63,125 bases of DNA, taken from positions 1 through 63,125 of the forward strand of contig JBDRBN010000026.1 of assembly GCA_043822785.1 (NCBI GenBank). The letters are read 5' to 3'. The translations under genes and the position numbers were made by a program. The stretch is from Pseudomonadota bacterium (GTDB lineage: Bacteria > UBA10199 > 2-02-FULL-44-16 > JAAZCA01). The notes under the pieces are model-generated. The model searched no databases, was not told the origin of the DNA, and saw only the letters and a program-made list of their open reading frames with translations. Shown one piece after another: positions 130 to 58,713 of the stretch; the stretch's first letter is position 1; the number at the start of each line of letters is the position of its first letter.

Positions 130-167
130 GGAGATCGCCACGCCTGCTATCGCAGGCTCGCGATGAC
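130..167. repeat. Hairpin repeat unit, type B (GGAGATCGCC...CTCGCGATGAC)
   Basis: ggagatcgccacgcctgctatcgcaggctcgcgatgac. Matches the family seen at 18 other loci. Internal GCCTGC/GCAGGC stem. Confidence 0.8.
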
Positions 168-27050: not shown

Positions 27051-27063
27051 ATGAGCAAGCAAC

Positions 27064-27138
27064 GGAGATTGCTTCGCTTCACTCGCAATGACATCCGATG
27101 TGTCATTGCGAGGAGCGTTTAGCGACGAAGCAATCTCC
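27064..27138. repeat. Hairpin repeat doublet abutting the stop of GIY-YIG gene 1
   Basis: ggagattgcttcgcttcactcgcaatgac, a spacer, then gtcattgcgaggagcgtttagcgacgaagcaatctcc. Confidence 0.85.
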
Positions 27139-27139
27139 T

Positions 27140-27433: not shown

Positions 27434-27443
27434 ATTCTATACA

Positions 27444-27472
27444 GGAGATTGCTTCGCTTCGCTCGCAATGAC
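27444..27472. repeat. Single hairpin repeat unit upstream of GIY-YIG gene 1
   Basis: ggagattgcttcgcttcgctcgcaatgac. Confidence 0.8.
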
Positions 27473-34214: not shown

Positions 34215-34225
34215 CGGATTCCAAC

Positions 34226-34296
34226 GGAGATTGCTTCGCTTCGCTCGCAATGACAACCAATATGTCATTGCGAGGGCGCAGCCCGAAGCAATCTCC
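34226..34296. repeat. Hairpin repeat doublet abutting the stop of GIY-YIG gene 2
   Basis: Same architecture and junction (..caatctcc-ttcaaaaccagccctcgctcaaatc) as at 27064-27138. Confidence 0.85.
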
Positions 34297-34297
34297 T

Positions 34298-34591
34298 TCA
34301 AAACCAGCCCTCGCTCAAATCATTCCAATCAGGATTCTTCTCCTCTATCAATGTAATTTTCTTTTTTCTTGGACCTGCCTTAACCTGTTTCTCTCTCGTT
34401 ATAGCAACTTCTATATCATTAGTTTGCTCAAAGAATACCAACTTCTTTATGCTGTATTTTGAAGTAAAACCACGAATCAATAAATTTTTGTGTTCATAAA
34501 CTCTTCGATGAATATCATTTGTCACACCTGTGTACAGCACTGTGTTGTATTCATTCGTCATAATGTACACATAATATGTTTTTTGATTCAT
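34298..34591 (-). CDS. GIY-YIG nuclease family protein, copy 2
   Basis: 97 aa. About 23 differences from copy 1, counted by eye. Same motifs. Confidence 0.85.
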   Translation of the reverse strand: MNQKTYYVYIMTNEYNTVLYTGVTNDIHRRVYEHKNLLIRGFTSKYSIKKLVFFEQTNDIEVAITREKQVKAGPRKKKITLIEEKNPDWNDLSEGWF

Positions 34592-34605: not shown

Positions 34606-34720
34606 GTCATTGCGAGAAGGCGAAGCCGACGAAGCAATCTCCTGCAATGGGGGATTGCTTCGCTTCGCTCGCAATGACAAGCGCGGAGATTGTTTCGCCC
34701 CTGTCGGGGCTCGCAATGAC
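34606..34720. repeat. Hairpin repeat triplet upstream of GIY-YIG gene 2
   Basis: Three consecutive units. The third has a GCCCC-TGTC-GGGGC inner stem. Confidence 0.85.
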
Positions 34721-34758: not shown

Positions 34759-36444
34759 TTACCTGCACCACATTGTTGTTCTGTCCCCGAACCTCGCAAA
34801 ACATCTCTTCGTTTGGCCGTCTTCTATATTCACGCTTCGCGATATCGTACGGCCGGTTGGTGGATGGATGACCTTTACAAGATGGGTGCCTGCCTTGACT
34901 TTGATGCCTGCAAGCGGCGTCTCGCGCGATTGCACATAATCTGAAACAGTTGCCAGCCCCCAAGGCTGTGCATTTACAAAAATCTTTGCATCATACTTTG
35001 GCTTAAGCTTTATCTCGCGCACAAATGCTGTTGATGAAGGGCTAAATGAAAAGCTCTCTTTGGCTACATCAAAACCAGGCGCTGATATCTTAACCAGGGC
35101 ATCGACTCCTTGGCTTATCTCGATATCGCTTCTTGCAAACGGGGTTGTGATCTTCATCGTCTTATCGCCCAGGGTGAACGTGCCTTTAGCGCCAGACGGC
35201 TCGCTATCTATTGCAATAACGCCTTTCACTTTCGGTGTGGCGTTTTTTGTCATTGCGAGGGAGGAACGACCGAAGCAATCTCCTTCAATGCATTGATTTC
35301 GGAGATCGCCACGCCCCCCAACGATCTTTGGGGGGCTCGCGATGACATGCCCGCTAGCACTATGAGAAGTAACTAAGGCCGCAAGAAGAATTGCAGTGCA
35401 CGCAACATGCCACCTGCTTATAAACACGCTCACGACACTGCGAGGCTTTGGCGACTTTACAACGAACGGATGGCTCATGACCTGGGTGCAAACTTTTGGA
35501 GCCTTATTATCCTCAAGATCCTCAGGAAAAGTTTCGCGAAGATAATGCGCAAATTCCAGGCTAGAATAGATTTGACCCAAGCCCTGCATGGCGTTTCGCA
35601 CATCAAATAGCATCTCGCCGGCTTCCTGATAGCGAGAGTCTGGATCTTTTGCTAAAGCCAGCATAACAGGCGCGCGCACCCCGGCCGGCAATGAATCGAT
35701 TGGTTTTAAATCAAAATCCGCGTCGCTTACCTTTCCCAGCACCTCCGCATCGGTAGCGCCTTTGAACAAGCGCTTGGCTGTGAGCAACTCAAACAAAACA
35801 ATTCCGCATGCAAAGATATCTGCGCGCTTATCAATGGGCTCGCCTTTGGCCTGCTCTGGCGCCATGTATGAGTACTTGCCCTTAACCTGACCAGCATCGG
35901 TAAGCTGGGTGCGATGAGCTCCTTTGGCAATGCCAAAATCCGTAACCTTTACCTCTCCATTCCAAGACAAAAGGATGTTTGATGGAGAGATATCCCTATG
36001 AACAAGATTTATAGGATGGCCACGTTCATCTTTTGTGCGATGGGCAAACTCCAGAGCAGTGAGCACCTGAGATATAATGAACAGGGCAGCAATGGGGGGA
36101 AGGGGCGCCTCATCTCTTATAGCCCTTGTCAAAAGTCGCGCGCAGTCAATGCCGTCAACATATTCCATGGCAATAAAGTAATGCCCATCTTCGCACCCCA
36201 GTTCATATACCTGCACTATGCACTGGTGCGCCAGATGGCACAGCACATTTGCCTCATCAATGAGCATGGCTTCATTGTCATCCCATGAAGGAAGCAGCTT
36301 TTTGATGGCAACGGTCTTTGCAAACCCGTTATCCGATTGGAGGGTGGCTTTGTACACCTCGGCTGTTCCGCCGCAGGCGATTTTTTCAACAATCTTATAC
36401 CGCCCAAACCCACTTCCGGGGACGTTTCCCATTCCGTAACCCAT
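34759..36444 (-). CDS. Hanks-type Ser/Thr protein kinase with a TM segment and an extracytoplasmic C-terminal domain
   Basis: GGTAEVYKA...AIKK, HRDISPSNILL, DFGIAK and MAPE motifs. TM CTAILLAALV. Contains an in-frame repeat insertion. Confidence 0.85.
   Translation of the reverse strand: MGYGMGNVPGSGFGRYKIVEKIACGGTAEVYKATLQSDNGFAKTVAIKKLLPSWDDNEAMLIDEANVLCHLAHQCIVQVYELGCEDGHYFIAMEYVDGIDCARLLTRAIRDEAPLPPIAALFIISQVLTALEFAHRTKDERGHPINLVHRDISPSNILLSWNGEVKVTDFGIAKGAHRTQLTDAGQVKGKYSYMAPEQAKGEPIDKRADIFACGIVLFELLTAKRLFKGATDAEVLGKVSDADFDLKPIDSLPAGVRAPVMLALAKDPDSRYQEAGEMLFDVRNAMQGLGQIYSSLEFAHYLRETFPEDLEDNKAPKVCTQVMSHPFVVKSPKPRSVVSVFISRWHVACTAILLAALVTSHSASGHVIASPPKIVGGRGDLRNQCIEGDCFGRSSLAMTKNATPKVKGVIAIDSEPSGAKGTFTLGDKTMKITTPFARSDIEISQGVDALVKISAPGFDVAKESFSFSPSSTAFVREIKLKPKYDAKIFVNAQPWGLATVSDYVQSRETPLAGIKVKAGTHLVKVIHPPTGRTISRSVNIEDGQTKRCFARFGDRTTMWCR
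35249..35346. repeat. Hairpin repeat doublet in frame inside the kinase CDS
   Basis: Translated as GHVIASPPKIVGGRGDLRNQCIEGDCFGRSSLAMTKN. Inner stem CCCCCCAA/TTGGGGGG. Confidence 0.85.
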
Positions 36445-45820: not shown

Positions 45821-45902
45821 GTCATTGCGAGCCCCCAACGATCTTTGGGGGCGAAGCAATCCCATGAAATTAAGGAGATTGCTTCGCTCCGCTCGCAATG
45901 AC
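45821..45902. repeat. Hairpin repeat doublet
   Basis: gtcattgcgagcccccaacgatctttgggggcgaagcaatccc, a spacer, then ggagattgcttcgctccgctcgcaatgac. Confidence 0.85.
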
Positions 45903-46049
45903 AGCCTTTATCTTATCAACCACCTTCTGCACCTCCGCATCCTTCGCCATATTCGCCAACGTGTTGATTGCAATGTTGACATTTACAATCAACATGGTTT
46001 TCGCATTTTTTTATGGCATTTTGTACATCTGTCGGATAGTCCTTCTCCC

Positions 46050-46457
46050 ATGAAAAAATCATACATAGCTATAGGATTAACGGTTTTTGTGGCGGCAGCA
46101 GCCTTCATATTTCTTGCCTCCTCATCACAGGCCGGATCAAGAAAGCCTGCAAAGGATGCATCATTTGAGGGCTCGCCAGCATGGGAGAAGTTGGATCTAA
46201 GAATGCGGCAGGCGTGGAAAGAAGCTACATCAAAAGGGGGCGATAAGGATCAGGTGCTCGAGTGCATCATGAAGGCAAAGAACCGACTTAGCGAAGATGA
46301 CAAGGCAGCACTTAGTGCAGCTGGTTTTCAGGGCCGAACCTTTGCAGGCCGCATTGTAACAGGCAGCCTTAAGGCAGACGATGTGCCTGATGTTGCAAGG
46401 CTGCCATTTATTGTGGCAATGGAGTTGGCTGTGCCGATGACGTTAAAAAAACAGTAA
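46050..46457 (+). CDS. Small secreted protein resembling the N-terminal pro-region of the adjacent S8 protease
   Basis: Signal peptide MKKSYIAIGLTVFVAAAAFIFLASSSQA. The ...DVPDVARLPFIVAMELAVPMTL segment parallels ...GLGEISQLPEVTALEASKPMRL in the protease. The 5' part of the track ORF is repeat-derived. Confidence 0.6.
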   Translation: MKKSYIAIGLTVFVAAAAFIFLASSSQAGSRKPAKDASFEGSPAWEKLDLRMRQAWKEATSKGGDKDQVLECIMKAKNRLSEDDKAALSAAGFQGRTFAGRIVTGSLKADDVPDVARLPFIVAMELAVPMTLKKQ

Positions 46458-46504
46458 TCAGTGACCAGTGATCAGTTATCAGTGATCAGAAAAAGCTAGA
46501 AGAT

Positions 46505-46608
46505 GTCATTGCGACGGCGTAGCCTGAAGCAATCTCCGTAATTTCTGATTCTTAGGAGATTGCTTCAGGCTACGCCTTCGCAATGACAAAAACGGAGTTC
46601 CGCGATGA
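46505..46608. repeat. Hairpin repeat doublet plus a truncated third unit
   Basis: gtcattgcgacggcgtagcctgaagcaatctcc, a spacer, ggagattgcttcaggctacgccttcgcaatgac, then ggagttccgcgatgac. Confidence 0.85.
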
Positions 46609-46630
46609 CAAATCAAGGAGAATCTAAGAT

Positions 46631-49006
46631 ATGGAAAAACATTACTCCCTTTTCTCTAAGATCCTAATCCTTACGTTCCTATTCGGCGTTTTTGTTCTTT
46701 TACCAAAATCTGCATCCACAGACATTCCCTCGGGCGCAGACAAAATGGATTTACCGCTTCGCATGCTCATGGACAGGCCTACTGTTGCAAAGGCCATGCT
46801 GGGCAAGGCCATCACAGTGCAAGACGGCGTGGAGCTTGTGGATGTGCTCATTAAGTCATCTGACACATGGCAAACAGAACAATCGGTGAAAATGGCCGGC
46901 GGATGGGTGCGCTCTACAATCAAAAACATCATGACCGCTTATGTACCAGTGGATGGATTGGGCGAGATATCACAACTGCCAGAAGTCACAGCGCTTGAGG
47001 CATCAAAGCCCATGCGCCTTCTTATGGATACAGCCCGCTCTGCAAACAATACCGACGTAGTGAGCGTGCAAAACAATGGCTATAATGGCGAAAATGTCGT
47101 GGTGGGCGCAATTGACTCGGGCCTCGACTACTCGCGTTCTGACTTTGATGACCCTGCAGGCGGAACCAGGGTGCAGTATTTGCGCTTTCAGAGCGTGAGC
47201 AGCGGAAGCGTATCAACAACAGAGTGCGCAAAAGACATGATAGACGGTGGCACATGCTCCATAAGCGCAAGCAATGACTCGGCCATAAGCCATGGCACGC
47301 ACGTCACAGGCATAGCTGCTGGAAGCGACTCCACATATACAGGAGTGGCGTCCGCAGCAGACATCATGCTCGTGCGCAATGACTTTGACGACGATGTAAC
47401 CGAGGGCGGCGCAACCAGCGGCACGTTCAGCGGCGGTGTGATCGACGGAGTGGTAGAGATATTTGAGAAAGCCGACATACTGGATAAACCTGCTATCATA
47501 AACATCTCCCAGGGCACTAACATCGGCGCGCACGATGACACCTCTCTTATGGAGCAGGCGTTAAACGATGCGGTTGCAGGTGGTTACTCGAGCACTGGCA
47601 AAGCCTATGGCCGCATCATAGCAGCTGCTGCCGGCAATGAAGAGGTGGTCGATTCCTTGTTGCAAGCATTGGGCATTGGCGCATTTATCGGTGGTGTGCA
47701 CGCAGAGGTAAACGTACCTGATGGTTCAAGCCACGCATGGCGCCTATGGCTAATAGGCTCAACTTCTCCAGGCCGCACGCCTCTTGTGATCGATTCCTGG
47801 TTTGGCAAAGGCCAGTCAGGTACATGCAAGGTAGCTGCAAACGCTTACCAGTATGGCGATGTATTTGGTGCCAATTTTGGCGCACCAGCTGGTGCAACCA
47901 CAGACAGCGCAAGAGCATCCATCAGTGATACTGCGCTAAGCAGCGATACCTCTGCTTCAGGTCAGGACACAAATGCTGCAGTCGTTCTGGCGACTGACTC
48001 ATCAGATAGTCAAAACGAGCGGCCTCGCGCCTTATTCACCTATGGTCCGGCCAGCGGCACATCGTGGGATAAGATAGCCATCATAAAGAGCGATGGCACT
48101 ACCAACAATAATTCATACTATCTTGACGTGATAGTTCGTGCTGTTGGCGGTACGTGCAGCGGTGATATCTGGATCGAAGGTGGCGGTACCTATGTAAATT
48201 TCATGGGAGGAATCGACTCTGGCGCATATGACCTTGCAAACGGAGCCAGCGGCAATGGATATGTCATGCAAAATGGCGATGGCAACCAAACAGTAACCCT
48301 TCCAGGTACAGCATCTGGCGTGATAGCTGTGGGCGCTTACTTACAAACAAAACCTGAGTCAGGTTGTCCTAGCCAATCGTGCTGGACCGCAAGCAACAGC
48401 ACGCAATATGACGCTACAGATGTTACTCAACCAGCAGACGCGCAAATAAACGGCGGCACCGTGCAAAATCGCTGCCCGTTCTCAAGCATGGGCCCGCCTG
48501 CGTATGCGTATTCTGGAAGAAAGCCCGACGTGATGGCGCCTGGCGATCCAATCATCTCGACTCTTGCTACAGGGTACAGCCCTGCTGCTGCGGTTTTGGT
48601 CAACAGCACGCACTTTAAGAACCAGGGTACCTCTCAGGCCAGCCCGCACATCGCTGGCATCGTGGCTTTGCTCTTGCAAAAGAACAACACGCTAACAGCT
48701 GCACAGGCAAAAGCAGCTCTCACTGGTAGCGCATCTCTCGTATCCAACCCTAATGACGAAGTGGGTTATGGCAATGCAAATGCGCCTGGCGCGATGGCAG
48801 CAGTGTCTTCTAATACCTCCGGATACAGCGGCACAGGTGATCTTAAGCAATCCGATCTAAACGGCGGTGGCGGTGGTGGTGGCAGCTCAAGCGGAAGTTG
48901 CGGAGGATCCATAGTGCCTGCTTCTGTTACATCGGTGAGTTCGATTGCTATAATAGCTATGTTGCCGCTTGTGCTTTTTGCAGTAAGAAGGAGAATGAGA
49001 AAATAA
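46631..49006 (+). CDS. Subtilisin-like S8 serine protease with a C-terminal sorting-type tail
   Basis: Catalytic triad contexts VVGAIDSGLD, HGTHVTGIAAG and GTSQASPHIAG. C-terminus GGGGGGSSSGSCGGS-(TM)-RRRMRK. Confidence 0.85.
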   Translation: MEKHYSLFSKILILTFLFGVFVLLPKSASTDIPSGADKMDLPLRMLMDRPTVAKAMLGKAITVQDGVELVDVLIKSSDTWQTEQSVKMAGGWVRSTIKNIMTAYVPVDGLGEISQLPEVTALEASKPMRLLMDTARSANNTDVVSVQNNGYNGENVVVGAIDSGLDYSRSDFDDPAGGTRVQYLRFQSVSSGSVSTTECAKDMIDGGTCSISASNDSAISHGTHVTGIAAGSDSTYTGVASAADIMLVRNDFDDDVTEGGATSGTFSGGVIDGVVEIFEKADILDKPAIINISQGTNIGAHDDTSLMEQALNDAVAGGYSSTGKAYGRIIAAAAGNEEVVDSLLQALGIGAFIGGVHAEVNVPDGSSHAWRLWLIGSTSPGRTPLVIDSWFGKGQSGTCKVAANAYQYGDVFGANFGAPAGATTDSARASISDTALSSDTSASGQDTNAAVVLATDSSDSQNERPRALFTYGPASGTSWDKIAIIKSDGTTNNNSYYLDVIVRAVGGTCSGDIWIEGGGTYVNFMGGIDSGAYDLANGASGNGYVMQNGDGNQTVTLPGTASGVIAVGAYLQTKPESGCPSQSCWTASNSTQYDATDVTQPADAQINGGTVQNRCPFSSMGPPAYAYSGRKPDVMAPGDPIISTLATGYSPAAAVLVNSTHFKNQGTSQASPHIAGIVALLLQKNNTLTAAQAKAALTGSASLVSNPNDEVGYGNANAPGAMAAVSSNTSGYSGTGDLKQSDLNGGGGGGGSSSGSCGGSIVPASVTSVSSIAIIAMLPLVLFAVRRRMRK

Positions 49007-49013
49007 TTAGGAG

Positions 49014-49093
49014 TGTCATTGCGAGGGCAAAGCCCGAAGCAATCTCCCCTATGTAAGGGGATCGCTACGCCCGCTATCGCGGGCTCGCGATGA
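49014..49093. repeat. Hairpin repeat doublet (type A plus type B)
   Basis: gtcattgcgagggcaaagcccgaagcaatctcc, a spacer, then gggatcgctacgcccgctatcgcgggctcgcgatgac. Confidence 0.85.
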
Positions 49094-49097
49094 CAAT

Positions 49098-51143
49098 ATG
49101 ACAAAATTTCCAAAACAACTCCTTCGCATATTTGTAATCGCCATATTTGCAACCGCGGTTGCCTGGGGCGCATCGCATCTTAAAGCTGCGCGCGACCTTG
49201 AAGAGATGACCTTTGACATAAGAGTGCTCGCATTTTCTCCAGAAACAAAGCCATCTCCTGATATCGTCATGATCTGGCTTGATGAAGCTACGATGAAAGG
49301 GCTGCCCTATCGCACACCTATCCCTCGCGATTTTTTGGCAACACTTCATTCAAACATTCTAAAAGCAAAGCCCTGGCTCATAGCATATGATATCTTCTTT
49401 AAGGATCCTTCTTTTCCAAAAGCAGATAGCGAATTTGCAAAAGCTCTGGAAATGGGCGCTGCATACGGCATTGTTCCAAGGCGGCCTGATGGAGTTGTGG
49501 ATATGCCCCTTGCTTTGTTTATGGAGGCGCTGGCTGGAGTTGGGCTCGCAGATCTTCCGTTTAACCCCTTTGATGCAACAGTGCGAATGGCAAAGCTTGG
49601 CTTTGATACAGACAGGGGTGAGATGGATTCGTTTGCTGCCATGATCTTCAAAGCCGCAACTGGCATCGATGCAGCCACATCTATAAAAGAACAAAATAAC
49701 GCACCAGGATGGGGCCCGCTTAAAACCACCCCATATACAGGTAAAGATAAGCTCATCATCCGGTTTGCAGGTCCTCCTGGTAAGATTGGAGATCCAAACA
49801 ACGCTTTTAAAACATACTCTGCATCGTTAGTGAAAAAAGGGCTCATTCCTGATGCATGGCTTAAGGACAAGATCGTCATGGTGGGCGCATCATACCAAGA
49901 TCTGAAAGACGCCTATCTCACGCCATATTATGCAAAGGTTACAAATTATGCCCGCATGCCTGGCGTTGAAATCCATGCAAATGTTTTATCGAGCCTTATC
50001 ACAAATCAGCTCTATTACACGCTTGCGCCTTGGCAGGGTTGGGCATGGAGCTTTGTCATTGCACTTATCGTATCTATAGCTGTTGTGCTTGCCTCACCAT
50101 GGCGAGCCACGTTTGCATATATTCTAACAGTGGCAGCAGCATCTGTTGCTTGTATTCTTATGTTTCGCTTAAGCGCGGTGACCATACCCATGATCTCGCC
50201 TTTGATAGGTGCTACCGCGTCGTTTGGCGCAGGGCTTGGTTGGCGCGCGCTCACCGAAGGCAAACAAAAGCGTTTTATAAAGAGCGCGTTCGCCAAATAC
50301 GTGCCACATGCGGTGGTTGAGCGCATGACAGAAAACCCACAGCTTTTAAAACTCGGTGGCGAGACCCGCCAGATAACAAGCTTGTTCACTGATATTGCCT
50401 CGTTTACCACCATATCAGAGCGCATGGATCCAGAGGAGCTTGTGGCGTTTCTGAATGATTATCTGGGAAAAATGAACGAGGTGCTCTTTAGCTATGGCGC
50501 CACTTTGGACAAGTACGAAGGAGATGCGATCATCGCGTTCTTCAATGCGCCTCTTGATGTAGCTAATCACGAACTCTGCGCTGTAAAGGCAGCCTTGGGA
50601 ATTAAGCGCGCAAGTGCAGAGATAACAAAACAGTGGGGCGAGCGATGCGGCAGGGATATCATAACGCGTGCAGGTATAAACTCGGGATCAGCTGTTGTGG
50701 GCAACATGGGATCTTTGGGCCGTTTTGATTACACTGCAATAGGAGATACCATAAATCTGGCAAGTCGGCTGGAAGGGGCTAACAAGTTTTATAATACCAC
50801 TATAATGGCAAGCGAGCAGACTGTATCAAGGCTTGGCGATGAGATAATGGTTCGACCTTTGGATAAGGTACGCGTAAGAGGAAAGACAAAGCCGATTTTT
50901 CTATATGAAATTTTCGGAGTCAGCGATGAAGTAGAAGCTAAAGTTATAAGCGAGCTCGTCTCTCCTTATAAAAAGGCTTTTGAGCTTTTTGAAAAGAGAA
51001 GGGCTGAAGATGCAAAGAGTCTTCTTTCAAAAATCCTAGAGAACTTTGCAAACGACGGCCCTTCACAAAAACTCATAGCGAGGTGCGAACGATTGATAAA
51101 GGAACCTGAGTGGGATTTGGTTACGGATTTGGAAACAAAGTAA
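49098..51143 (+). CDS. CHASE2-domain class III adenylate/guanylate cyclase
   Basis: N-terminal TM and periplasmic region, a TM cluster, then the cyclase domain (ITSLFTDIASFTTISE...YEGDAIIAFFNAP). Confidence 0.8.
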   Translation: MTKFPKQLLRIFVIAIFATAVAWGASHLKAARDLEEMTFDIRVLAFSPETKPSPDIVMIWLDEATMKGLPYRTPIPRDFLATLHSNILKAKPWLIAYDIFFKDPSFPKADSEFAKALEMGAAYGIVPRRPDGVVDMPLALFMEALAGVGLADLPFNPFDATVRMAKLGFDTDRGEMDSFAAMIFKAATGIDAATSIKEQNNAPGWGPLKTTPYTGKDKLIIRFAGPPGKIGDPNNAFKTYSASLVKKGLIPDAWLKDKIVMVGASYQDLKDAYLTPYYAKVTNYARMPGVEIHANVLSSLITNQLYYTLAPWQGWAWSFVIALIVSIAVVLASPWRATFAYILTVAAASVACILMFRLSAVTIPMISPLIGATASFGAGLGWRALTEGKQKRFIKSAFAKYVPHAVVERMTENPQLLKLGGETRQITSLFTDIASFTTISERMDPEELVAFLNDYLGKMNEVLFSYGATLDKYEGDAIIAFFNAPLDVANHELCAVKAALGIKRASAEITKQWGERCGRDIITRAGINSGSAVVGNMGSLGRFDYTAIGDTINLASRLEGANKFYNTTIMASEQTVSRLGDEIMVRPLDKVRVRGKTKPIFLYEIFGVSDEVEAKVISELVSPYKKAFELFEKRRAEDAKSLLSKILENFANDGPSQKLIARCERLIKEPEWDLVTDLETK

Positions 51144-51151
51144 CACATATT

Positions 51152-51234
51152 GTCATCGCGAGCCTGCGATAGCAGGTGTGGCGATCTCCGGATTTTCAGG
51201 AGATTGCTTCGCCCCCAAATGGGCTCGCAATGAC
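51152..51234. repeat. Hairpin repeat doublet
   Basis: gtcatcgcgagcctgcgatagcaggtgtggcgatctcc, a spacer, then ggagattgcttcgcccccaaatgggctcgcaatgac. Confidence 0.85.
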
Positions 51235-51254
51235 ACCTTTCAGGAGGTCAGGTT

Positions 51255-52196
51255 ATGAAAAAACTTACACTCGTTTTAATAGCTCTCGTATCACTGCTTA
51301 TTCCGCTACACGTTGGTGCCTCCGGCATTCTTCTCGACGCAGAGGGAAAAGTGGCAATAACTATTGCTGGCAAATCATCTGTTAACGCGGTTTCTGGCCT
51401 TGAGCTTCCTGATGGAAGCGTCATCGATGTAGGCAATGGGGCAAAGGCATCGGTGCTCTTGGAAAGCGGAGCCGTTGACGAGATCGCCTCTAAAACAAAA
51501 TACACTGTTGGCGCCACTAAGGCCTCATCAAAGCGCACTGATTTTGGAAACGGCATTACTCTAGCCATGCGCGAGCTCGCCGCATCTGGAGAAGGTGCGG
51601 CAGTACACGGCATGGTAAAAAAGGCTGAAGGCCCAAAAGATATGCACATCAATTTTGGCGCGCTTGGCGGTACAGGGTTTAGAGGCACTTATCCTGTTGA
51701 TACAACTGTAAGGTTAAAAAACAACATTGAGTTCAGATGGAGCAGGCCGGTCGACTATTCAAATCCTCTCATCATAATAGACGATGCGCAAAAGAGACAT
51801 CTTTCAGAATCGCCCATCAAAGCAGGGGCTTCGCTCATCTTAACATCACCTGGTGCGCTGCGCTTAACAAAAGGAAATGTATACAGCTGGTATCTTGCCA
51901 CAAAAGAGGGAGAAAGCATAAGAGGTAAGACTACTAGGTATAAATTTACAACGCTCTCAGCTGCTGATGAAAAAACTTTGGATATAGATATAGCTAAAGT
52001 GAACGCCCTCAGCATGAGCTCTGCAGGAAAGGATCTTCTCGTCGCACAGTTTTATTTTCAACGCGGACTAATAGATGACATGGTAAAAACTCTTTTACCA
52101 CTATATCAAAAGCAGCCCAGCCCATTTGTAAAACAATTGCTCTTTCTTGGATATTCTAGAATGGGTAATGTGGAGGAGATGGAGAAGTACAGATAA
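51255..52196 (+). CDS. Secreted FecR-like protein, probable partner of the CHASE2 cyclase
   Basis: Signal peptide MKKLTLVLIALVSLLIPLHVGA. GKVAITIAGKSS...LPDGSVIDVGNGAKASV resembles a FecR-domain pattern. Confidence 0.55.
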   Translation: MKKLTLVLIALVSLLIPLHVGASGILLDAEGKVAITIAGKSSVNAVSGLELPDGSVIDVGNGAKASVLLESGAVDEIASKTKYTVGATKASSKRTDFGNGITLAMRELAASGEGAAVHGMVKKAEGPKDMHINFGALGGTGFRGTYPVDTTVRLKNNIEFRWSRPVDYSNPLIIIDDAQKRHLSESPIKAGASLILTSPGALRLTKGNVYSWYLATKEGESIRGKTTRYKFTTLSAADEKTLDIDIAKVNALSMSSAGKDLLVAQFYFQRGLIDDMVKTLLPLYQKQPSPFVKQLLFLGYSRMGNVEEMEKYR

Positions 52197-52217
52197 GCGA
52201 GAAACGTTACACAAGCT

Positions 52218-52295
52218 GTCATTGCGAGGGCGTAGCCCGAAGCAATCTCCAGCATACATTTTTTAAGGGGATTGCTTCGCTTTGCTCGCAATGAC
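52218..52295. repeat. Hairpin repeat doublet
   Basis: gtcattgcgagggcgtagcccgaagcaatctcc, a spacer, then gggattgcttcgctttgctcgcaatgac. Confidence 0.85.
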
Positions 52296-52311
52296 AGTTA
52301 CGTTGCTGGTA

Positions 52312-52755
52312 TTATCGTGAATCAGTTGTTCTTGTTTCTTTCTCAAAATCGCTTTCGCGTTTTTTGGTAAGCATGTGTTCTATCTTTCTTATAAGAGAAC
52401 GAAGGTGAAAGGGCTTTGATACATAATCATCTGCACCATGGGTCAGACCCTCGATGCGATCAGCCTGGGCATCTCGAGCAGATACAATGAGTATTAATAT
52501 GTCTTTGGTTTTAGAATCTGCCTTGAGCTTATTGCACACCTCAATGCCTGATACTTTGGGCATCATGATATCCAAAATTATAAGATCAGGCTTGGCGTTT
52601 TTTATGGATTTTAAGGCTTCATCAGCAGAATAGGCGCTATCTACGTCGTAACCCTCTTTGGAGAGGAGTTTTCCTAGGACCGCATGGATCTCGGGCTCGT
52701 CATCAACAACCAAGACTCGAGATGATTTGTCTTTTATCTGCATGATATTACTCAC
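52312..52755 (-). CDS. Stand-alone CheY-like response regulator receiver
   Basis: RVLVVDDEPE, DLIILDIMMP and DDYVSKPF receiver motifs. No output domain. Confidence 0.85.
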   Translation of the reverse strand: MSNIMQIKDKSSRVLVVDDEPEIHAVLGKLLSKEGYDVDSAYSADEALKSIKNAKPDLIILDIMMPKVSGIEVCNKLKADSKTKDILILIVSARDAQADRIEGLTHGADDYVSKPFHLRSLIRKIEHMLTKKRESDFEKETRTTDSR

Positions 52756-53168
52756 CTAATCGTCTGCCATGCTGGTCGTCAAGTAAAAACTTTGGTTTTG
52801 GAGCATTTAATTGCATTTTCGCCGTATAAATTAAAACTTGCTTAATTAATCCTGGTTTCCTCTTGCAGGTCTAAAGAAGATTCTTTAGAATTTCCCCCAG
52901 ATAGAAGCGCTCGTGCCTTCGCTTACTAATTCACTACGGAGGCATGCTTGACAGGGGGTAATCTTAAAGTTAGAGAGCTTCGATATTAATTCCTCTCGAC
53001 GCCATGCGGAAATCTGGCCCAGGAAAGGGGGTGCACTCTCCAAAAGGGGCAATCCGCGGGAAGACGTTATATAAACTTATCCGACATCTGTGCTCGGCAT
53101 TACATTCGGTCATGCAGGAATAATCCTGTTTAACCGAAGGCAAATAAGGAAAAAGGAGAGTAACAACT

Positions 53169-54317
53169 ATGAAAAAACTGTTAATTGCAGTCCTCGCTTT
53201 TAGCATGCTCGCACTTATCGCGAGCAGCGCTCAGGCGCAGGAAAAGTACGTTGCCGGTGGCTTTGAAATGGCCGGTCACGTGATGGCAGGTGGTGGTTAT
53301 CAGCATAACAACAACAGGGCTCAGACATACTTTACCTTCGACGGCGATAACGGATACTTCTCCGGCCCGATGGGCAAGTACCTGGGTCAGGCTCCAGCAG
53401 CACGCACGGATCACCTTTCGTTCTTCGTCGATGAAGTAGAACTCGACATCATGAAGAGCTTTGGTGAGAACATTCGTCTCCGTGCAGATCTCGACTTTGC
53501 CCGCGTAGCATCGTCTGGTCTGTTCGCAGCAGCATTGGTTGTTGAGCAGGCTTATGCTACAGCCAACATTCCAGTTGGCAACGGCATCGAGTTCTTTCTG
53601 GGCCGCTTCAACACCCCGATCGGTTTTGAATCAGTCGACGTAAGCGAGAACGACACAATCTCCAAGTCAGTGCTCGTAACTGGTCTGCGTCCGGCTAACA
53701 CAACCGGTCTGAAGATCTACTATCCTTTCAGCGATTTGGTTGACTTCCATTTCTACATCGTCAACTCGCTCACCCAGGATAGCGACGTGAAGATCAACGA
53801 CGTTCCTTCTTTTGGAATGCGTCTTGGCTTCAACTGGGGTGATGAAGGCACAGAAAGCACGTTTGGCATATCTGGTCTTTTCGGCCCAGAAACCCGTGCA
53901 AGCAACAAACACTTCACCTATGCTGGCGACATCGATCTAAACTGGTGGATCACAGAATCATTCGCACTCGGTCTTGAAGCGCTGTTCCGCCGTGACAATG
54001 CTTTTGGTGGCAGCAACTCCGAGTACATGGCTGGCCTACTCAACCTGCACTATGCTTTCAGTGATGTGTGGGATGGCACGCTCAAGTACGTGTTCGCAAA
54101 GCAGTTTGATCCGACCAACCTAGCAGCAGCAACGGTTTGGACGAACCTGACCGGCGCTGAGCAGTCAATGCATCAGATCGCTCTCGCTGGTGGTTACATG
54201 ATCGCTGATGGTGCGAAGTTCAAGCTCGAAGGCCGCTTCGACATCGTCAACCCAACTGGTGCTAGCAACACCGAGTACACCTACGGTGGCGCGATCGCAT
54301 TTGCCTATGACTTCTAA
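53169..54317 (+). CDS. Outer-membrane porin-like beta-barrel protein
   Basis: Signal peptide MKKLLIAVLAFSMLALIASSAQA. Alternating beta-strand pattern. C-terminal AFAYDF. Confidence 0.75.
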   Translation: MKKLLIAVLAFSMLALIASSAQAQEKYVAGGFEMAGHVMAGGGYQHNNNRAQTYFTFDGDNGYFSGPMGKYLGQAPAARTDHLSFFVDEVELDIMKSFGENIRLRADLDFARVASSGLFAAALVVEQAYATANIPVGNGIEFFLGRFNTPIGFESVDVSENDTISKSVLVTGLRPANTTGLKIYYPFSDLVDFHFYIVNSLTQDSDVKINDVPSFGMRLGFNWGDEGTESTFGISGLFGPETRASNKHFTYAGDIDLNWWITESFALGLEALFRRDNAFGGSNSEYMAGLLNLHYAFSDVWDGTLKYVFAKQFDPTNLAAATVWTNLTGAEQSMHQIALAGGYMIADGAKFKLEGRFDIVNPTGASNTEYTYGGAIAFAYDF

Positions 54318-54350
54318 TTGAATCTTATCATAGGTAAGAGAAGTAACAAA

Positions 54351-54386
54351 AAGCCCTGGGAGAAATCCCAGGGCTTTTTATTTTTT
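54351..54386 (+). terminator. Intrinsic terminator
   Basis: aagccctggg-agaaat-cccagggctt followed by a T-rich run. Confidence 0.8.
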
Positions 54387-54454
54387 GTCATTGCGAGCGA
54401 AAGCGAAGCAATCTCCGGAGATCGCCACGCCCGCTATCGCGGGCTCGCGATGAC
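54387..54454. repeat. Hairpin repeat doublet that supplies the last codons and stop of the radical SAM gene
   Basis: gtcattgcgagcgaaagcgaagcaatctcc directly joined to ggagatcgccacgcccgctatcgcgggctcgcgatgac. ORF 54434-55396 ends ...NAVIASPR*. Confidence 0.85.
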
Positions 54455-55396
54455 AGCATTCCTAATATCCTTCCAAATCTCTCGCAGAAGATTCGATGGC
54501 ATCTTCCATGCCTTAAGCGAAAAGGGTACGATGCAGCCGCATTTGTCGCAATCTGCTTTGGGTCCAATCACGCATGGCTTTTTCATATTGCCCCAAGCAT
54601 CAAACGCAGTGCCATTGTTTACGAACACGCACTTTGCACCTACAGCTTTGTGTTTGTTTTTTTCTTTCATCAGATCAAACGTCTTTGGAGGCCCACCGAT
54701 AAAATCACCGTAAATGCTCTTTAGTTCTTGTAGCTTATCTAGCACGCTGTCACGCTCTTCAAATGTAAGCCACAGATCCTCTTTTACGCCGCGTATGGGA
54801 GTGAAGAAGTCAAAAAGTATGTGGCGCACATGCGGAACCTTCTTCCACTCCTTGATGAGATCTTCTATGCTCCCCACGTTTGACCTGTTAAGACAGCATG
54901 CGATGGCTACGTTGATATCAGGGCATGAATCGCTGGCTAAATTTGTTTTTATTTTTTCGTAACACCCCATACCCCGTATGGAGTCGTGAATTTCTTCAGT
55001 GCCATCGATAGACACGTGGAATTCCACATCCTTCCAGTCGGGCAAAGGCAGGGTGCCATTTGTAACCACGCGGTTTGCCTTAAAGAATTTGCGCCCTTTT
55101 TCTACAAGTTCTTTGCGCAGAAGAGGTTCGCCCCCAACCCACGTGCAGCTAAAAAAAGCACTTCTGCCTTTTTGCATTTTTTGTATTCTTTGGAGCCACT
55201 CTTCGATTGTAAGCTCGGGCTTTTTATCCTGCTCATATGAGAAAAAATAACAGTGCTTGCAGCGCAGATTACATTTGTTGGTTACGTCAATGGAGCAAAA
55301 GGTATTTTTAGGCAGGGGTACTATCGTAAGCGCTAGTTTAGGCAGGATCTTGCCTCGCCAGAAATGGTGTTTGGGCTTAGTGTTTTTATTGTTCAT
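54434..55396 (-). CDS. Radical SAM protein with a C-terminal Cys cluster
   Basis: CNLRCKHCYF CxxxCxxC motif. GGEPLL. C-terminal CVIGPKADCDKCGC. The 3' end runs into a repeat. Confidence 0.75.
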   Translation of the reverse strand: MNNKNTKPKHHFWRGKILPKLALTIVPLPKNTFCSIDVTNKCNLRCKHCYFFSYEQDKKPELTIEEWLQRIQKMQKGRSAFFSCTWVGGEPLLRKELVEKGRKFFKANRVVTNGTLPLPDWKDVEFHVSIDGTEEIHDSIRGMGCYEKIKTNLASDSCPDINVAIACCLNRSNVGSIEDLIKEWKKVPHVRHILFDFFTPIRGVKEDLWLTFEERDSVLDKLQELKSIYGDFIGGPPKTFDLMKEKNKHKAVGAKCVFVNNGTAFDAWGNMKKPCVIGPKADCDKCGCIVPFSLKAWKMPSNLLREIWKDIRNAVIASPR

Positions 55397-55458
55397 GGGA
55401 ACGATCTCTGTAGCCTGCTAACTACCTGATTGGCAAGAGAAAAAATCGGAGCTCTGCT

Positions 55459-55547
55459 GTCATCGCGAGGAGCCGAAGGCGACGTGGCGATCTCCGTAAA
55501 TCAATGAGTTCAGGAGATTGCTTCGTCGCTACGCTTCTCGCAATGAC
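55459..55547. repeat. Hairpin repeat doublet
   Basis: gtcatcgcgaggagccgaaggcgacgtggcgatctcc, a spacer, then ggagattgcttcgtcgctacgcttctcgcaatgac. Confidence 0.85.
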
Positions 55548-55625
55548 AAATCAGTTTGACAACATGCCATAAATAAGGCACGTGTCTTGGGCTAAACACC
55601 TAATATTTCAACCAATTAGAACGTT

Positions 55626-57986
55626 TTGGATCTCATGAAGCACTTTGCAATAAATCCCATCTGGATCACCCTTGGGCCAATATTGGTCATTAACCTCGGT
55701 TTGCTCGCTTCTTACCTTATATATCAGTTATGGGGCCGTAAAAAACTTTCTCGTGAGTATAAAGGCGCCAAAAACGAGGGCTCTAAGATGCTCTCTAGCT
55801 CCACCAGAGAGTGGTGGTTTTGGACTACCGAACCCATCGTCAGGCTCTTTGTCAAACTGCGCATGGGACCAAATACGCTCACTGCTCTGGGATTTTTTAT
55901 AGCCTGCCTTGCTGCCTGCTTCTTTGCAAAGGGTTGGTTTGGCTATGCAGGATGGACAATGATCTTTGGGGCAACGTTTGACATCTTTGACGGTCGTGTT
56001 GCTCGTCTCACTGGCTCCACTTCAAGATCCGGAGCATTCTTTGATGCAGTTATGGATAGGTTTGGCGAAGGCGCATGTTTTTTGGGATTAGCATACTATT
56101 TTAGAGAAAGTTTCATGCTGCCCGTTGTGATCGCAGCGCTTATCGGCTCAACACTCGTAAGCTACACAAAAGCGCGCGGCGAAGGCGTGGGCGTAGACTG
56201 TAAGATTGGAATGATGCAGCGCCCAGAGCGCGTGGTCTATATGGGCGTTGCTGCTGTATTTGACCCAGTGATGGGTATAGCGCTTACGCGCTGGTGGACA
56301 AGCCCGCCTCCGGTCCTCATGATGATAGCCGTAGGTTTCATCGCTATCATGACCATAGCCACAGCGATCCATCGCATGATCTACATCATGAATGCGCTGG
56401 ACACTGCCGATGAGCGCGAAAAAGAATCAATCCCACAGATTATAAGCAAACTCTCCACTCCAGAGGGGCGAGAGAAGTTTTGGGACCATGCGCGCTATGG
56501 TTATGATCGCAGCCGCGCAGCATATTCACACGTGGTCTTGTTTGTAGCCAGCGCAATCGATCCTGCCACAATGAGGGATATGATGCAAAAGGGCGAGATG
56601 CCAAATGTTGCCAGGCATATCGCCGAACGGGGCTCTGCAAAGGATGCTGTTAGCGTATTTCCTTCTACGCTTGGACCAGCAGCAATACCATTTGTAACAG
56701 GCTGCTTTCCAGGCACGTGCGACATTCCTGGAACGCGCTGGTTCGATCGCAACGTGCATCCAGGTCGCGTTTTGACCATGAATCGCTTTCGCGACTATCT
56801 GGGTTGGGGCGCACATGCCATGGATTTCGACTTATCAAAATCAGTGCGTACCATCTATGAATACTCAAGGCAGGCGGTCAATATCTTCGGCGCGCTCAAT
56901 CGAGGCTGCGGCCTTGTTAGAGATCCATCATTCTTTAGAATACACCGTCTCTTTGCAGAGGCAAGCCAGCCGGAAGAGGTAGAGAAAGTTAGCGCTGCTG
57001 CCTTTTATTGGTTTGCCAAAGCCGCACGGCGTGAAACAGATTTTGTATTCTACAGATTCTCGCCCGCTCTAGCATTTGGACCTGATGGCAGAAACGATGA
57101 AAACGTGCGAGAGGCATGCAGAAAGATAGATTTATATGTAGGAAAAGCAGTGGATACTCTAAAATCCCAAGGCATGTATGAGAGCACAGCTCTGATGCTC
57201 ACCTGTGACCATTCATGCGCTCATGTGAGATCGACCTTTAATCTAGACGATTTCGTATCTAACAGGTTTAAAAGCTTAAGCCCATCGCCCTGCCTGCCGG
57301 CAGGCAGGCGCAGAATCAAAGACTGGCAAGACGCACAGGCCATCGCCCTTGTCTCCGGCACGTCAATGGCACACCTTTATGTCAGAAATCAAAGCAGCTG
57401 GTCAGCTCAAACGTTTTTTGAAGAGATAGAGAAGTTAGGACTCATAGGCTCTCTTTTAGAACAAGAAGGCGTAGATATCCTTGCAGGAAGAAGCGTTGAA
57501 GGCGGCATAGTCGTGCAATCCAGGCGCGGAAGAGCGCATATCCTTGAAGATGCTGACGGCAGAATTACCTATATGGCAAAGACCGGTGATCCATTCGGGC
57601 TTACAGATATGCCCCAGGTGCTGGATTCTACCAGGGCGTTTGATTTAACCGTGGGCAGTAATTATCCAGATTGCATCCTGCAAGCGCTCAACCTGTTTCG
57701 TTCTCAAAGAACCGGCGATCTTGTTATCAGCACAAAGGATGATATTGCTATTGCCTCAGATGCACAGACTGCGATGGGCGCAACTCACGGCTCGCTTGCA
57801 AGCAGCCACATGCTGGTGCCCTTTATGACGAGCGTGCCGGGTGATGAATCTACGATTCGAACATCAGATGTATTTGCTATCTCACTTAACCTGTTGGGCA
57901 TTGAACCCGAGCACACGCTTGATGGCACTTTGCCACAGGATATAAACTGGGATGTCATTGCGAGCCAAGCGAAGCAATCACAATGA
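55626..57986 (+). CDS. Fusion of CDP-alcohol phosphatidyltransferase (N) and an alkaline-phosphatase-superfamily phosphodiesterase-like domain (C)
   Basis: DGRVARLTGSTSRSGAFFDAVMDRFGE matches D-G-x2-A-R-x8-G-x3-D-x3-D. Multiple TM segments. The C-terminal half has type I phosphodiesterase-like blocks (FPSTLGPAAIPFVTGC, GATHGSL). The last 11 aa are repeat-derived. Confidence 0.7.
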   Translation: MDLMKHFAINPIWITLGPILVINLGLLASYLIYQLWGRKKLSREYKGAKNEGSKMLSSSTREWWFWTTEPIVRLFVKLRMGPNTLTALGFFIACLAACFFAKGWFGYAGWTMIFGATFDIFDGRVARLTGSTSRSGAFFDAVMDRFGEGACFLGLAYYFRESFMLPVVIAALIGSTLVSYTKARGEGVGVDCKIGMMQRPERVVYMGVAAVFDPVMGIALTRWWTSPPPVLMMIAVGFIAIMTIATAIHRMIYIMNALDTADEREKESIPQIISKLSTPEGREKFWDHARYGYDRSRAAYSHVVLFVASAIDPATMRDMMQKGEMPNVARHIAERGSAKDAVSVFPSTLGPAAIPFVTGCFPGTCDIPGTRWFDRNVHPGRVLTMNRFRDYLGWGAHAMDFDLSKSVRTIYEYSRQAVNIFGALNRGCGLVRDPSFFRIHRLFAEASQPEEVEKVSAAAFYWFAKAARRETDFVFYRFSPALAFGPDGRNDENVREACRKIDLYVGKAVDTLKSQGMYESTALMLTCDHSCAHVRSTFNLDDFVSNRFKSLSPSPCLPAGRRRIKDWQDAQAIALVSGTSMAHLYVRNQSSWSAQTFFEEIEKLGLIGSLLEQEGVDILAGRSVEGGIVVQSRRGRAHILEDADGRITYMAKTGDPFGLTDMPQVLDSTRAFDLTVGSNYPDCILQALNLFRSQRTGDLVISTKDDIAIASDAQTAMGATHGSLASSHMLVPFMTSVPGDESTIRTSDVFAISLNLLGIEPEHTLDGTLPQDINWDVIASQAKQSQ

Positions 57987-57987
57987 C
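57954..57987. repeat. Short or degenerate hairpin repeat unit forming the 3' end of the fusion gene
   Basis: gtcattgcgagccaagcgaagcaatcacaatgac, translated as VIASQAKQSQ*. Confidence 0.7.
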
Positions 57988-58004
57988 ACTCTGAGGGTAT
58001 TATT

Positions 58005-58598
58005 ATGAAACAAAAACACAAAAATTGTGATGATGGGCAACTTCTCTTGGATGAAGCTGTGGACACATTCATACAAGGCGCAGGAAAGGTTTCGTCTGCA
58101 CTCCTCGGCATGATAAACCGCATAGGCGGACAAATCTACGCCCTGCTCTTTCTTTCTGATGAGCCGCAATCTCTTGATGAGATCGGCGAACGCCTAGGCG
58201 TGTCCAAGAGCAACATATCCATTAACATTCGCATGCTCGAAGAGTTCAACCTTGTGCGCAAGGTATGGGTAAAGGGGTCGAGAAAAGACTACTATGCTGC
58301 AGAGCGCTCATATCCCAAAAAGGTAATTAAGGACTTCTTGGACAAGATCAAAGGAACGCTCACCGACGCCATTACCACTGTGGAGCGCACTCGCGCCAAG
58401 GCTACAGAAGCGCGGGTAACGCTAAGCAAAGAAAGTAAGGCACAAGCTGAATTCATACTGCAGCAGGTAAACCTCATAGGGCTTTTCTACTATGCTGCTG
58501 ATAACTTCTTCGAGAATTTCTTTTTGGGCAAACCGGTGAACGTCGATCTGCTCCGCAACATCATCCTCAACCCAGATGATTTGGGAAAAAAACAGTAA
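58005..58598 (+). CDS. GbsR/MarR-family winged-helix transcriptional regulator
   Basis: QIYALLFLSDEPQSLDEIGERLGVSKSNISINIRMLEEFNLVRKV is a typical GbsR-type HTH. Confidence 0.7.
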   Translation: MKQKHKNCDDGQLLLDEAVDTFIQGAGKVSSALLGMINRIGGQIYALLFLSDEPQSLDEIGERLGVSKSNISINIRMLEEFNLVRKVWVKGSRKDYYAAERSYPKKVIKDFLDKIKGTLTDAITTVERTRAKATEARVTLSKESKAQAEFILQQVNLIGLFYYAADNFFENFFLGKPVNVDLLRNIILNPDDLGKKQ

Positions 58599-58600
58599 GC

Positions 58601-58713
58601 GTCATTGCGAGCCCTTCGACTCACGTTGTTCGCTCAGGACAAGCTCCGCGAAGCAATCTCCTTAACACACTGATCTACGGGGATCGCCACGCCCCTTCGG
58701 GGCTCGCGATGAC
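58601..58713. repeat. Hairpin repeat doublet (long-type plus type B)
   Basis: Nearly the same composite as at 6263-6368. Confidence 0.85.

Follow-up and report, generated by a model that had tools for sequence, protein, structure and literature searches.

The window analysed here, positions 1-63,125 of contig JBDRBN010000026.1 of a Pseudomonadota bacterium (GCA_043822785.1), holds a family of short hairpin repeats together with two small genes, ssn1 and ssn2, which encode single-domain GIY-YIG nucleases and are each bracketed by inverted repeat units. We interpret these repeats as Ssn-related motifs (SRMs) paired with small single-domain GIY-YIG nucleases of the Ssn family (cd10448, close to UPF0213), a reading to which we assign a probability of about 80%. 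Because the protein and the conserved positions of the repeat fit the published system while the published SRM search string and the form of the stem do not, we take this to be an Ssn/SRM system with a variant motif architecture, apparently a divergent branch of the system described in 2025.

Repeat units of the window

Searching the window for GTCATYGCGAG with at most one mismatch returned 35 matches spread over 19 loci (about 0.55 units per kb over 63 kb), compared with a chance expectation of about 2 (2.3 ± 1.5, maximum 7, in dinucleotide-preserving shuffles). An earlier annotation made from the letters of the window, which we call the sequence-only reading, had reported at least 19 loci with about 35 units, and every locus was recovered where it had been placed. 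Each unit runs in the order (T)GTC, ATYGC, GAG, an inner segment, (C)GAA or GTG, GCRAT and CTCC, which is the anatomy that reading had described, and the inner stems and three long-type copies that it quoted are all present. Two types are distinguished by their arms, type A (ATTGC...GCAAT, 24 units) and type B (ATCGC...GCGAT, 11 units), with concordant 5' and 3' arms in 34 of the 35 units (the exception, at 34687-34720, carries ACAAT) and a TGTC tag likewise in 34 of 35. In the predicted fold, a 5-bp outer stem that opens with an A-T and a T-A pair leads through a small internal loop to an inner hairpin; inner segments measure 6 to 62 nt. Self-complementarity, which had been claimed for every inner segment, is found in most of them and is weak at 6331-6368, at 35249-35284 and in the three long-type units (6263-6324, 29958-30011 and 58601-58662). 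These long-type units share a 37-nt insert (CCCTTCGAC...GCTCAGGRCAAGCTCCG) that is conserved among the three copies and whose predicted fold is no better than that of shuffles.

Folded as single-stranded DNA (ssDNA), units with an inner hairpin are more stable than their shuffles (z -2.4 to -4.1), and whole doublets are far more stable (z -5.3 for 49015..49094 and -9.6 for 45821..45902). The same inner module can be combined with either arm type, as CCCCCAA...TTGGGGG is at 35300 (type B) and 45821 (type A). Inverted doublets predominate, as the sequence-only reading had noted, although its description of them as head-to-head needs correcting: among 15 unit pairs, 12 have their GTC tags outward and their tails facing (tags-out) and 3 have their tags inward (tags-in), the latter sharing a constant 9-nt spacer (27092/27102, 28837/28847 and 34254/34264). 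Of the 11 gene gaps between 45.8 and 58.7 kb, ten contain a unit or doublet (all except 52756-53168), which bears out the earlier statement that nearly every gap in this region is occupied.

Structural selection on the outer stem

Because the difference between types A and B inside the window is effectively one event, we evaluated covariation with related DNA, taking the window together with 80 loci from other genomes and anchoring units only on GTC-RY-NNN-GAG. The exact reverse complement of the 5-nt arm was found within 65 nt downstream in 308 of 400 anchored units, compared with 7 of 400 for a control arm, and at least 12 arm types each possessed their own matching partner, including ATTGC/GCAAT (181/198), ATTCT/AGAAT (48/50), ATCCT/AGGAT (21/25), ATCGC/GCGAT (18/20), ATGCT/AGCAT (8/10), ATTAC/GTAAT (7/7) and ATTTC/GAAAT (7/7), with further arm types behaving likewise. 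When the partner was chosen blind to complementarity, as the three bases preceding the first ATC[TC], all three variable pairs were formed in 272 of 306 units. Counted over distinct rows, 26 cells had changed on both sides, against 12.9 ± 3.5 in shuffles (none of 500 reached 26), and the covariation score was 0.298 against 0.159 in shuffles (1 of 500), with every slid register scoring lower. The covariation of the outer stem exceeds that of shuffles, and this stem is therefore under structural selection. Such selection had been claimed from the covariation of types A and B; both the covariation and the selection are real, with the window itself contributing a single A/B split and the multi-class support coming from the related loci.

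Two ssn genes between inverted units

Pfam scans of the open reading frames (ORFs) of the window found PF01541 as the only domain in both Ssn proteins. The ssn1 product shares 43% identity with the SsnA homologue of Neisseria gonorrhoeae (pairwise BLASTP, E 2e-27), and tblastn in a 7.3-Gb database matched that homologue at E 1e-17, where Chenal et al. (Nat Commun 2025, PMC11893778) asked for E < 1e-10. An alignment of 24 sequences that includes both window proteins has invariant Y9, Y20, R30 and E67, namely the GIY tyrosine, the YIG tyrosine, the arginine and the glutamate; the catalytic residues in N. meningitidis SsnA are Y6, Y17 and E64 (PMC11893778). A profile search of the PDB returned, as the only solved relatives, the uncharacterised UPF0213 proteins 1ZG2 and 1YWL. 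By homology, the two window proteins would be ssDNA-specific nucleases.

Read in the direction of the gene, both ssn genes have a forward unit about 10 nt 5' of the ATG and a reverse unit that abuts the stop codon (TTTTGA-AGGAGATTGC...CTCGCAATGAC), making a unit - ssn - unit module of about 370 bp. Hairpin repeats of 20-50 nt thus lie inverted on both sides of ssn1 and ssn2, with an unpaired GTC before the palindrome and a conserved C after it, as in SRMs. The gene occupies exactly the position of the doublet's spacer, which measures 0-17 nt in gene-less doublets. A three-unit layout (Table 1) is common to ssn1 and ssn2 and is found downstream of many homologues. In tags-out doublets the spacer sometimes closes with a sequence resembling the ssn stop junction (e.g., GCAATCTCCTTCAA at 35249), which weakly suggests that doublets may have been derived by internal deletion; remnants of the ssn start and of its stop in doublet spacers are no more than suggestive.

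Association of gene and repeat across phyla

Databases contain at least 7,991 relatives of the Ssn protein, with identities of 60-70% across phyla. Scanning one genome per species gave 80 loci (L001-L080) with hosts in Chloroflexota, Cyanobacteriota, Patescibacteria, Bacteroidota, Ignavibacteria, Nitrospirota, Omnitrophota, Elusimicrobiota, Bacillota, Pseudomonadota and others. When only anchors accompanied by an exact 5-nt reverse complement were counted as units (the stringent definition), a unit lay within 200 nt of the gene in 63 of 78 homologues, compared with 1 of 139 control windows 1.4 kb away; a forward unit stood upstream of the gene in 45 of the 78, a reverse unit followed it downstream in 38, and both were present in 27. 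Unrelated loci totalling 432 kb gave 19 stringent matches (0.044 per kb), mostly chance arm sequences. The suggestion in the sequence-only reading that the repeats be compared with GIY-YIG genes was the right lead.

Homologue genes without the exact motif of the window carry variants with other arms, for example GTCATTCTGAG...GAAGAATC and GTCATCCTGAG...GAAGGATC, and the nearest protein neighbour shares the arm class in 55 of 57 cases (0 of 2000 permutations). Across 304 units of all arm classes, a C directly follows the 3' arm in 98%, and GTC is preceded by T in 81% and by C in 14%, GTC itself being part of the search anchor for this count; the Neisseria experiments had found these positions to be critical. 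In a Micavibrio metagenome-assembled genome (MAG; L004) the ssn gene is flanked by units, and canonical CGTC repeats flank the ssn homologue in records of N. gonorrhoeae (the canonical NTS/dRS3 repeats), Azospirillum lipoferum, Novosphingobium aromaticivorans and Sinorhizobium meliloti, all species named as CGTC-repeat hosts in PMC3733652. On plasmid AZO_p3 of A. lipoferum 4B (L164), the homologue at 1489-1782 lies between sufB and sufC of the Fe-S cluster operon, with CGTC-repeat doublets on either side. Long arrays of tandem or regularly spaced units surround ssn homologues in various MAGs (L025, L028, L041 and L044), such as the eight reverse units at a spacing of about 51 nt in L041; the window has no such arrays.

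Relation to published repeat systems

SsnA of N. meningitidis is a 94-aa single-domain GIY-YIG protein (cd10448) that binds the hairpin repeat NTS (CGTCATTCCCGCGMAVGCGGGAATCYRG) as ssDNA only, and not as double-stranded DNA, RNA or the reverse strand, and cleaves a few nucleotides upstream of it; binding depends crucially on the C that directly follows the palindrome, and cutting on the three nucleotides that precede it (PMC11893778). The sequence-only reading had left the level of selection as "DNA or RNA", and the published enzyme points to ssDNA rather than to RNA or double-stranded DNA. SRMs were reported in 71% of homologue neighbourhoods and on both sides in 42%, and the NTS-ssnA-NTS layout was described as resembling an insertion sequence (IS), its mobility not having been shown (PMC11893778). 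The window agrees with this system in its GIY-YIG proteins of about 95 aa homologous to SsnA, its inverted hairpin repeats on either side of the gene, its unpaired (C/T)GTC tag, its stem starting A-T, T-A with a C directly after the stem, its many gene-less intergenic copies and the occurrence of the system in many phyla. It differs in the stem, which is 5 bp long and leads into a conserved GA/GAA internal loop and then either a hypervariable inner hairpin or a 37-nt insert, whereas NTS forms a continuous 8-bp stem with a 4-nt loop, and in location, as about 6 of the 35 window units are intragenic and in frame whereas 2% of N. meningitidis NTS copies lie inside genes.

A second body of work describes CGTC-tagged repetitive extragenic palindromes (REPs), which have an unpaired CGTC tag (TGTC or CCTC allowed), A-T and T-A as first two stem pairs and a short tail, form mostly inverted dimers that are often heterodimers, include intragenic copies and span five phyla, the superfamily taking in Neisseria dRS3 and Rickettsia RPE-4/RPE-6 (Di Nocera, De Gregorio and Rocco, BMC Genomics 2013, PMC3733652). 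These repeats were said to "apparently lack a dedicated transposase", with no tyrosine transposase gene found flanked by them (PMC3733652), and Chenal et al. (PMC11893778) do not cite this work. The window units share the tag (as TGTC), the A-T/T-A pairs and the spread over several phyla, including Micavibrio; judged from the written description, they would also resemble these repeats in having a short tail, inverted dimers often of two stem types and intragenic copies. Their stems of 5 bp, interrupted, with an inner part of 6-62 nt, differ from the 8-9 bp with loops of 4-5 nt of the CGTC-tagged REPs, and the tail is CTCC in place of the 3-nt consensus CCA. In contrast to the absence of any transposase association in that survey, the repeats of the window and of Neisseria, Azospirillum, Novosphingobium and Sinorhizobium flank ssn genes.

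The REPs associated with RAYTs (REP-associated tyrosine transposases) carry a GTAG tag. With REP/REPIN-RAYT systems and IS200/IS605 elements, the window units have in common unpaired-tag hairpins, inverted doublets, a small nuclease gene between inverted repeats, insertion without target-site duplication and ssDNA recognition, the last of these being predicted for the window Ssn proteins; they differ in the tag (GTC against GTAG) and in the enzyme, a GIY-YIG hydrolytic nuclease as opposed to an HUH tyrosine transesterase, and we know of no covalent intermediate for the GIY-YIG enzymes here. The description REP/REPIN-like, as first given, is thus apt for a dispersed, REP-like hairpin family of mostly intergenic inverted doublets and does not extend to RAYT/REPIN membership. 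Rickettsia palindromic elements (RPEs) similarly lie in frame in genes and are tolerated as extra peptide segments, but by description they are about 100-150 bp long and confined to Rickettsia. Literature searches on GIY-YIG with REP, REPIN or MITEs (miniature transposable elements with inverted repeats), on YhbQ/UPF0213, on small dispersed repeats and on the repeat strings themselves returned nothing relevant.

Insertion of units as discrete pieces

The gap between kamA and kamD measures 124 nt in the window and 18-37 nt in three distinct relatives (L166/L167, L168 and L170), whose KamD proteins are 81-83% identical to that of the window (77-87% for KamD relatives overall), and 72 kb of syntenic kamA-kamD relatives held no genuine units. 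Excising 108 nt (TGTCAT...ATGACA) from this gap leaves 16 nt that include the ribosome-binding site, with no target duplication. In the syntenic relatives L168 and L169 the next called gene starts 3 nt after the homologue of the 861-aa ORF (175-2760), which in the window is followed by a solo unit. Other searches for related DNA gave little: a metagenome scan with the CHASE2 cyclase found no relatives, and contig searches returned nothing with two window proteins and only a 2.5-kb contig with protein P0003.

The RHS toxin ORF (27482-34054, minus strand, 2190 aa) remains open through all three of its unit insertions, and the three segments are gaps in 14 RHS homologues, which at 29% identity or less show them as insertions and do not give exact boundaries. 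Aligning the two ssn elements places a 48-nt insertion in the ssn2 leader relative to ssn1, which is a nested solo unit between the left end and the ATG. At 11 doublets we found no target-site duplication beyond a T...A that extends the inverted repeat. Units have thus been inserted as discrete pieces, without target duplication, both into coding sequence and into an otherwise conserved operon gap.

The RHS/YD-repeat toxin itself is full-length: it contains DUF6531 and RHS repeats, its core has a DPxGL-type end near aa 2010, and about 175 aa make up the C-terminal tip. The two ssn elements flank it in the same orientation, which gives the look of a composite element, yet the ssn copies are 76% identical. 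Beyond it, the C-terminal 160 aa of the Ser/Thr kinase ORF 34759-36444 may be real, or the frame may have been artificially extended by the repeat.

Proposed mechanism and mobility

By analogy with Neisseria, where the cutting has been demonstrated, ssDNA would arise on the lagging-strand template or enter as transforming or conjugative DNA, and a unit in it would fold so that its 5-bp outer stem (AT-NNN/NNN-AT) leads into the conserved GA/GAA internal loop and the inner hairpin. Binding by the cognate Ssn would involve the outer stem together with the internal loop and the invariant C immediately 3' of that stem. The enzyme would also need the unpaired GTC tag 5' of the stem, and its nick would fall a few nucleotides 5' of this tag, only on the strand that carries it. 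More speculatively, the 9-nt spacer of the tags-in pairs would bring two predicted cuts, one per strand, close together. We lean towards the view that repeat and ssn gene together are, or recently were, a selfish mobile element with MITE-like derivatives, under which restriction of incoming ssDNA would be a consequence or a later host use. The repeats do belong with a catalogued superfamily (PMC3733652, PMC11893778), an outcome that the sequence-only reading had named as one that would refute it if a mobilising enzyme were known; this applies in part, the cognate enzyme being known and its mobilising role putative.

Several observations weigh against this interpretation, either in its assignment to SRMs or in its mobile form. 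The SRM search string HGTCWYN(0-2)YYVSBRHN(0-5)WNVSBRGN(0-2)RNCYNB has 0 matching sites in the window and, of the 78 homologues in L001-L080, fits the flanks of just 1, although it does match the canonical NTS and the Azospirillum repeats; it is therefore protein homology and shared design, rather than the motif as published, that support membership. No ssn gene cognate to the type B units is present in the window, and the minimal unit (inner GCGAAGC) and the long type are no more stable than shuffles (z 0.2, -0.06 and -1.5). At only 76% identity, the two ssn copies do not resemble IS copies that have transposed recently, the hypervariable inner hairpin is hard to square with simple copy-and-paste of a master element, and the pairing of type A with type B in 7 of 11 gene-free tags-out doublets likewise speaks against recent copy-and-paste.

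The divergence of the ssn copies would fit better with the alternative that the units are non-mobile, host-maintained sites at which a domesticated Ssn restricts or tunes recombination of incoming ssDNA, with copies arising by recombination or gene conversion. The only demonstrated effect of the family is of this kind, transformation by NTS-bearing DNA being 5-fold higher in an ssnA knockout (PMC11893778), and the units cluster at the RHS toxin locus and at surface or signalling genes, much as NTS clusters at variable genes of Neisseria. We nevertheless regard this alternative as rather unlikely, given the clean insertions without flanking homology in the RHS coding sequence, the kamA-kamD gap and the ssn2 leader, the Azospirillum ssn inserted inside a suf operon, and the co-inheritance of protein and arm class. 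Ssn proteins of different phyla are moreover 60-70% identical and share the same terminal motif, which suggests horizontal spread. A selfish life cycle and a domesticated role are not mutually exclusive.

We consider it improbable that the hairpins act mainly as RNA, whether as terminators, mRNA 3'-end stabilisers or small RNAs, with an incidental link to GIY-YIG genes. In favour of such a role, the majority of copies are located shortly downstream of genes, GNRA- or GNA-like sequences occur in several inner loops, and REPs are known to stabilise upstream mRNA, a point taken up in PMC3733652. Against this, both unit orientations occur at each site, and the units have no T-tracts and are not called as terminators, genuine strong terminators being found immediately before two doublets, which sit right after their T-runs. 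Rfam gave no match at gathering thresholds in the whole window, and in E-value mode over 45.7-58.8 kb only chance-level miRNA and leader matches; no tRNA or tmRNA genes were found in the window. The conserved unpaired GTC tag and 3' C would be needless in a pure stability element, and SsnA does not bind RNA (PMC11893778). Secondary effects of the units on transcripts are possible. Least credible of all is a classical REP/REPIN family mobilised by a RAYT (Y1 HUH transposase): a Y1_Tnp ORF does lie at 36458-37177 (PF01797, E 6e-9), 1.1 kb from the doublet at 35249-35346, and the doublet architecture is REPIN-like, but we rejected this reading because the ORF scores 47 bits against NCBIfam REP_Tyr_transpos (cut-off 80) and is flanked by no units or inverted repeats, the tag being moreover (T/C)GTC rather than GTAG, GIY-YIG genes being unit-flanked in most of the 78 loci across phyla, and no tyrosine transposase gene having been found flanked by CGTC repeats (PMC3733652).

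Features of the window

Table 1. Positions of ssn genes and hairpin repeat units in the window (A and B, arm types).
Feature	Coordinates	Strand	Remarks
ssn1, 97-aa single-domain GIY-YIG nuclease gene	27140..27433	-	Pfam PF01541, E 4e-13
ssn2, 97-aa GIY-YIG gene	34298..34591	-	76% identical to ssn1; PF01541, E 2e-11
ssn1 upstream (left-end) unit	27443..27472	-	minimal type A; GCGAAGC mini-hairpin; 10 nt before ATG
ssn1 downstream (right-end) unit	27102..27139	+	adjoins stop codon (TTTTGA-AGGAGATTGC)
Extra unit	27063..27092	-	tag-to-tag with ssn1 right end across 9 nt
ssn2 right-end unit and tag-to-tag partner	34225..34297		right end 34264-34297 (+); partner 34225-34254 (-); 9-nt spacer
Three units upstream of ssn2	34606..34720		left end 34649-34678 (-); solo 34606-34643 (+); further unit 34687-34720 (-)
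Solo type B unit	129..167	-	8 nt downstream of 861-aa ORF (175-2760, -)
Doublet (long type A + type B)	6263..6368		between kamA and kamD
Tags-in pair (type A + type B)	28792..28883		9-nt spacer; in frame in RHS gene, aa 1724-1755
Solo long-type unit	29958..30011	-	in frame in RHS gene, aa 1348-1366
Tags-out doublet (A+A)	31145..31215		in frame in RHS gene, aa 947-970
Doublet (A+B)	35249..35346		inside open frame of Ser/Thr kinase ORF 34759-36444 (-), about aa 367-399, past kinase domain
Doublet (A+A)	45821..45902		directly after strong intrinsic terminator (45780-45813); z -9.6
Doublet (A+A) plus truncated tag	46505..46609		both inner GGCGTAGCC; truncated tag (GTCATCGCGG) at 46600-46609
Doublet (A+B)	49015..49094		between S8 peptidase and CHASE2 cyclase genes; z -5.3
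Doublet (B+A)	51152..51234		
Doublet (A+A)	52218..52295		
Doublet (A+B)	54387..54454		no spacer; directly after strong terminator (54348-54379); overlaps 3' end of radical SAM ORF 54434-55396 (-)
Doublet (B+A)	55459..55547		divergent intergenic gap
Solo minimal unit	57954..57983	+	supplies last ~10 codons and stop region of ORF 55626-57986
Doublet (long type A + type B)	58601..58713		between HTH gene and HEPN gene

Beyond the features of Table 1, the Y1_Tnp ORF at 36458-37177 (minus strand) encodes an IS200-like protein of 239 aa, and a perfect threefold tandem of a 12-nt unit (CCCAATTTGCTG) lies upstream of it at 37275-37311. A different simple repeat (CAGTGACCAGTGATCAGTTATCAGTGATCAG) is present right after a stop codon at 46455-46490, and a similar one (CAGC/CAGCTGA) fills the kamA-kamD gap of a 72%-identical relative (L082, 2930-2990); these may represent another small repeat family. 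The stretch at 9177-23835 has a lower GC content (36-44%) and contains three AAA_14/DUF4143 ATPase genes, four radical SAM/B12 genes of about 600 aa, a nucleotidyltransferase and an IS5/IS1182 transposase fragment (19395-20237), and may be an acquired island; no hairpin units were found between 6.4 and 27 kb of the window. A HEPN gene (58722-59692, minus strand) is paired with an HTH-nucleotidyltransferase (MNT-like) gene (59720-60388, minus strand), which probably form a toxin-antitoxin module, and beside this pair lies a truncated DDE transposase, directly behind the last doublet.

Significance

The general pairing of a GIY-YIG ssDNA nuclease with hairpin repeats has been known since 2025, and the window opens no new field. 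What it adds are units that evade the published string, an interrupted stem with a hypervariable inner hairpin, and clean insertion events, of which the three RHS insertions, the filled versus empty kamA-kamD site and the nested ssn2 unit bear on the mobility of Ssn elements. A large multi-phylum clade with ATNNN-GAG...GAA-NNNAT-C units is missed by the SRM string, and string-based surveys therefore undercount the system. The bipartite hairpin, in which the outer stem and loop are fixed and the inner hairpin is free, marks the parts of the substrate that are probably read by the enzyme, which would be useful if these nucleases were developed into ssDNA tools. The "orphan" CGTC-tagged REP superfamily, reported without a dedicated enzyme, can be tied to Ssn genes.

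A bolder proposal, which we hold only tentatively and think doubtful, is that the unit - ssn - unit module is an autonomous transposable element of a new mechanistic class, mobilised by its 97-aa GIY-YIG ssDNA nuclease, with doublets and solo hairpins as its MITE-like derivatives. If this were true, no smaller protein-coding transposon than the module would be known, the inner hairpin would serve as a passenger segment with folding as its only requirement, and Ssn would supply the mobilising enzyme that has long been missing for the CGTC-tagged REP superfamily as a whole, including dRS3/NTS, RPE-4/-6 and the Wolbachia and alphaproteobacterial repeats.

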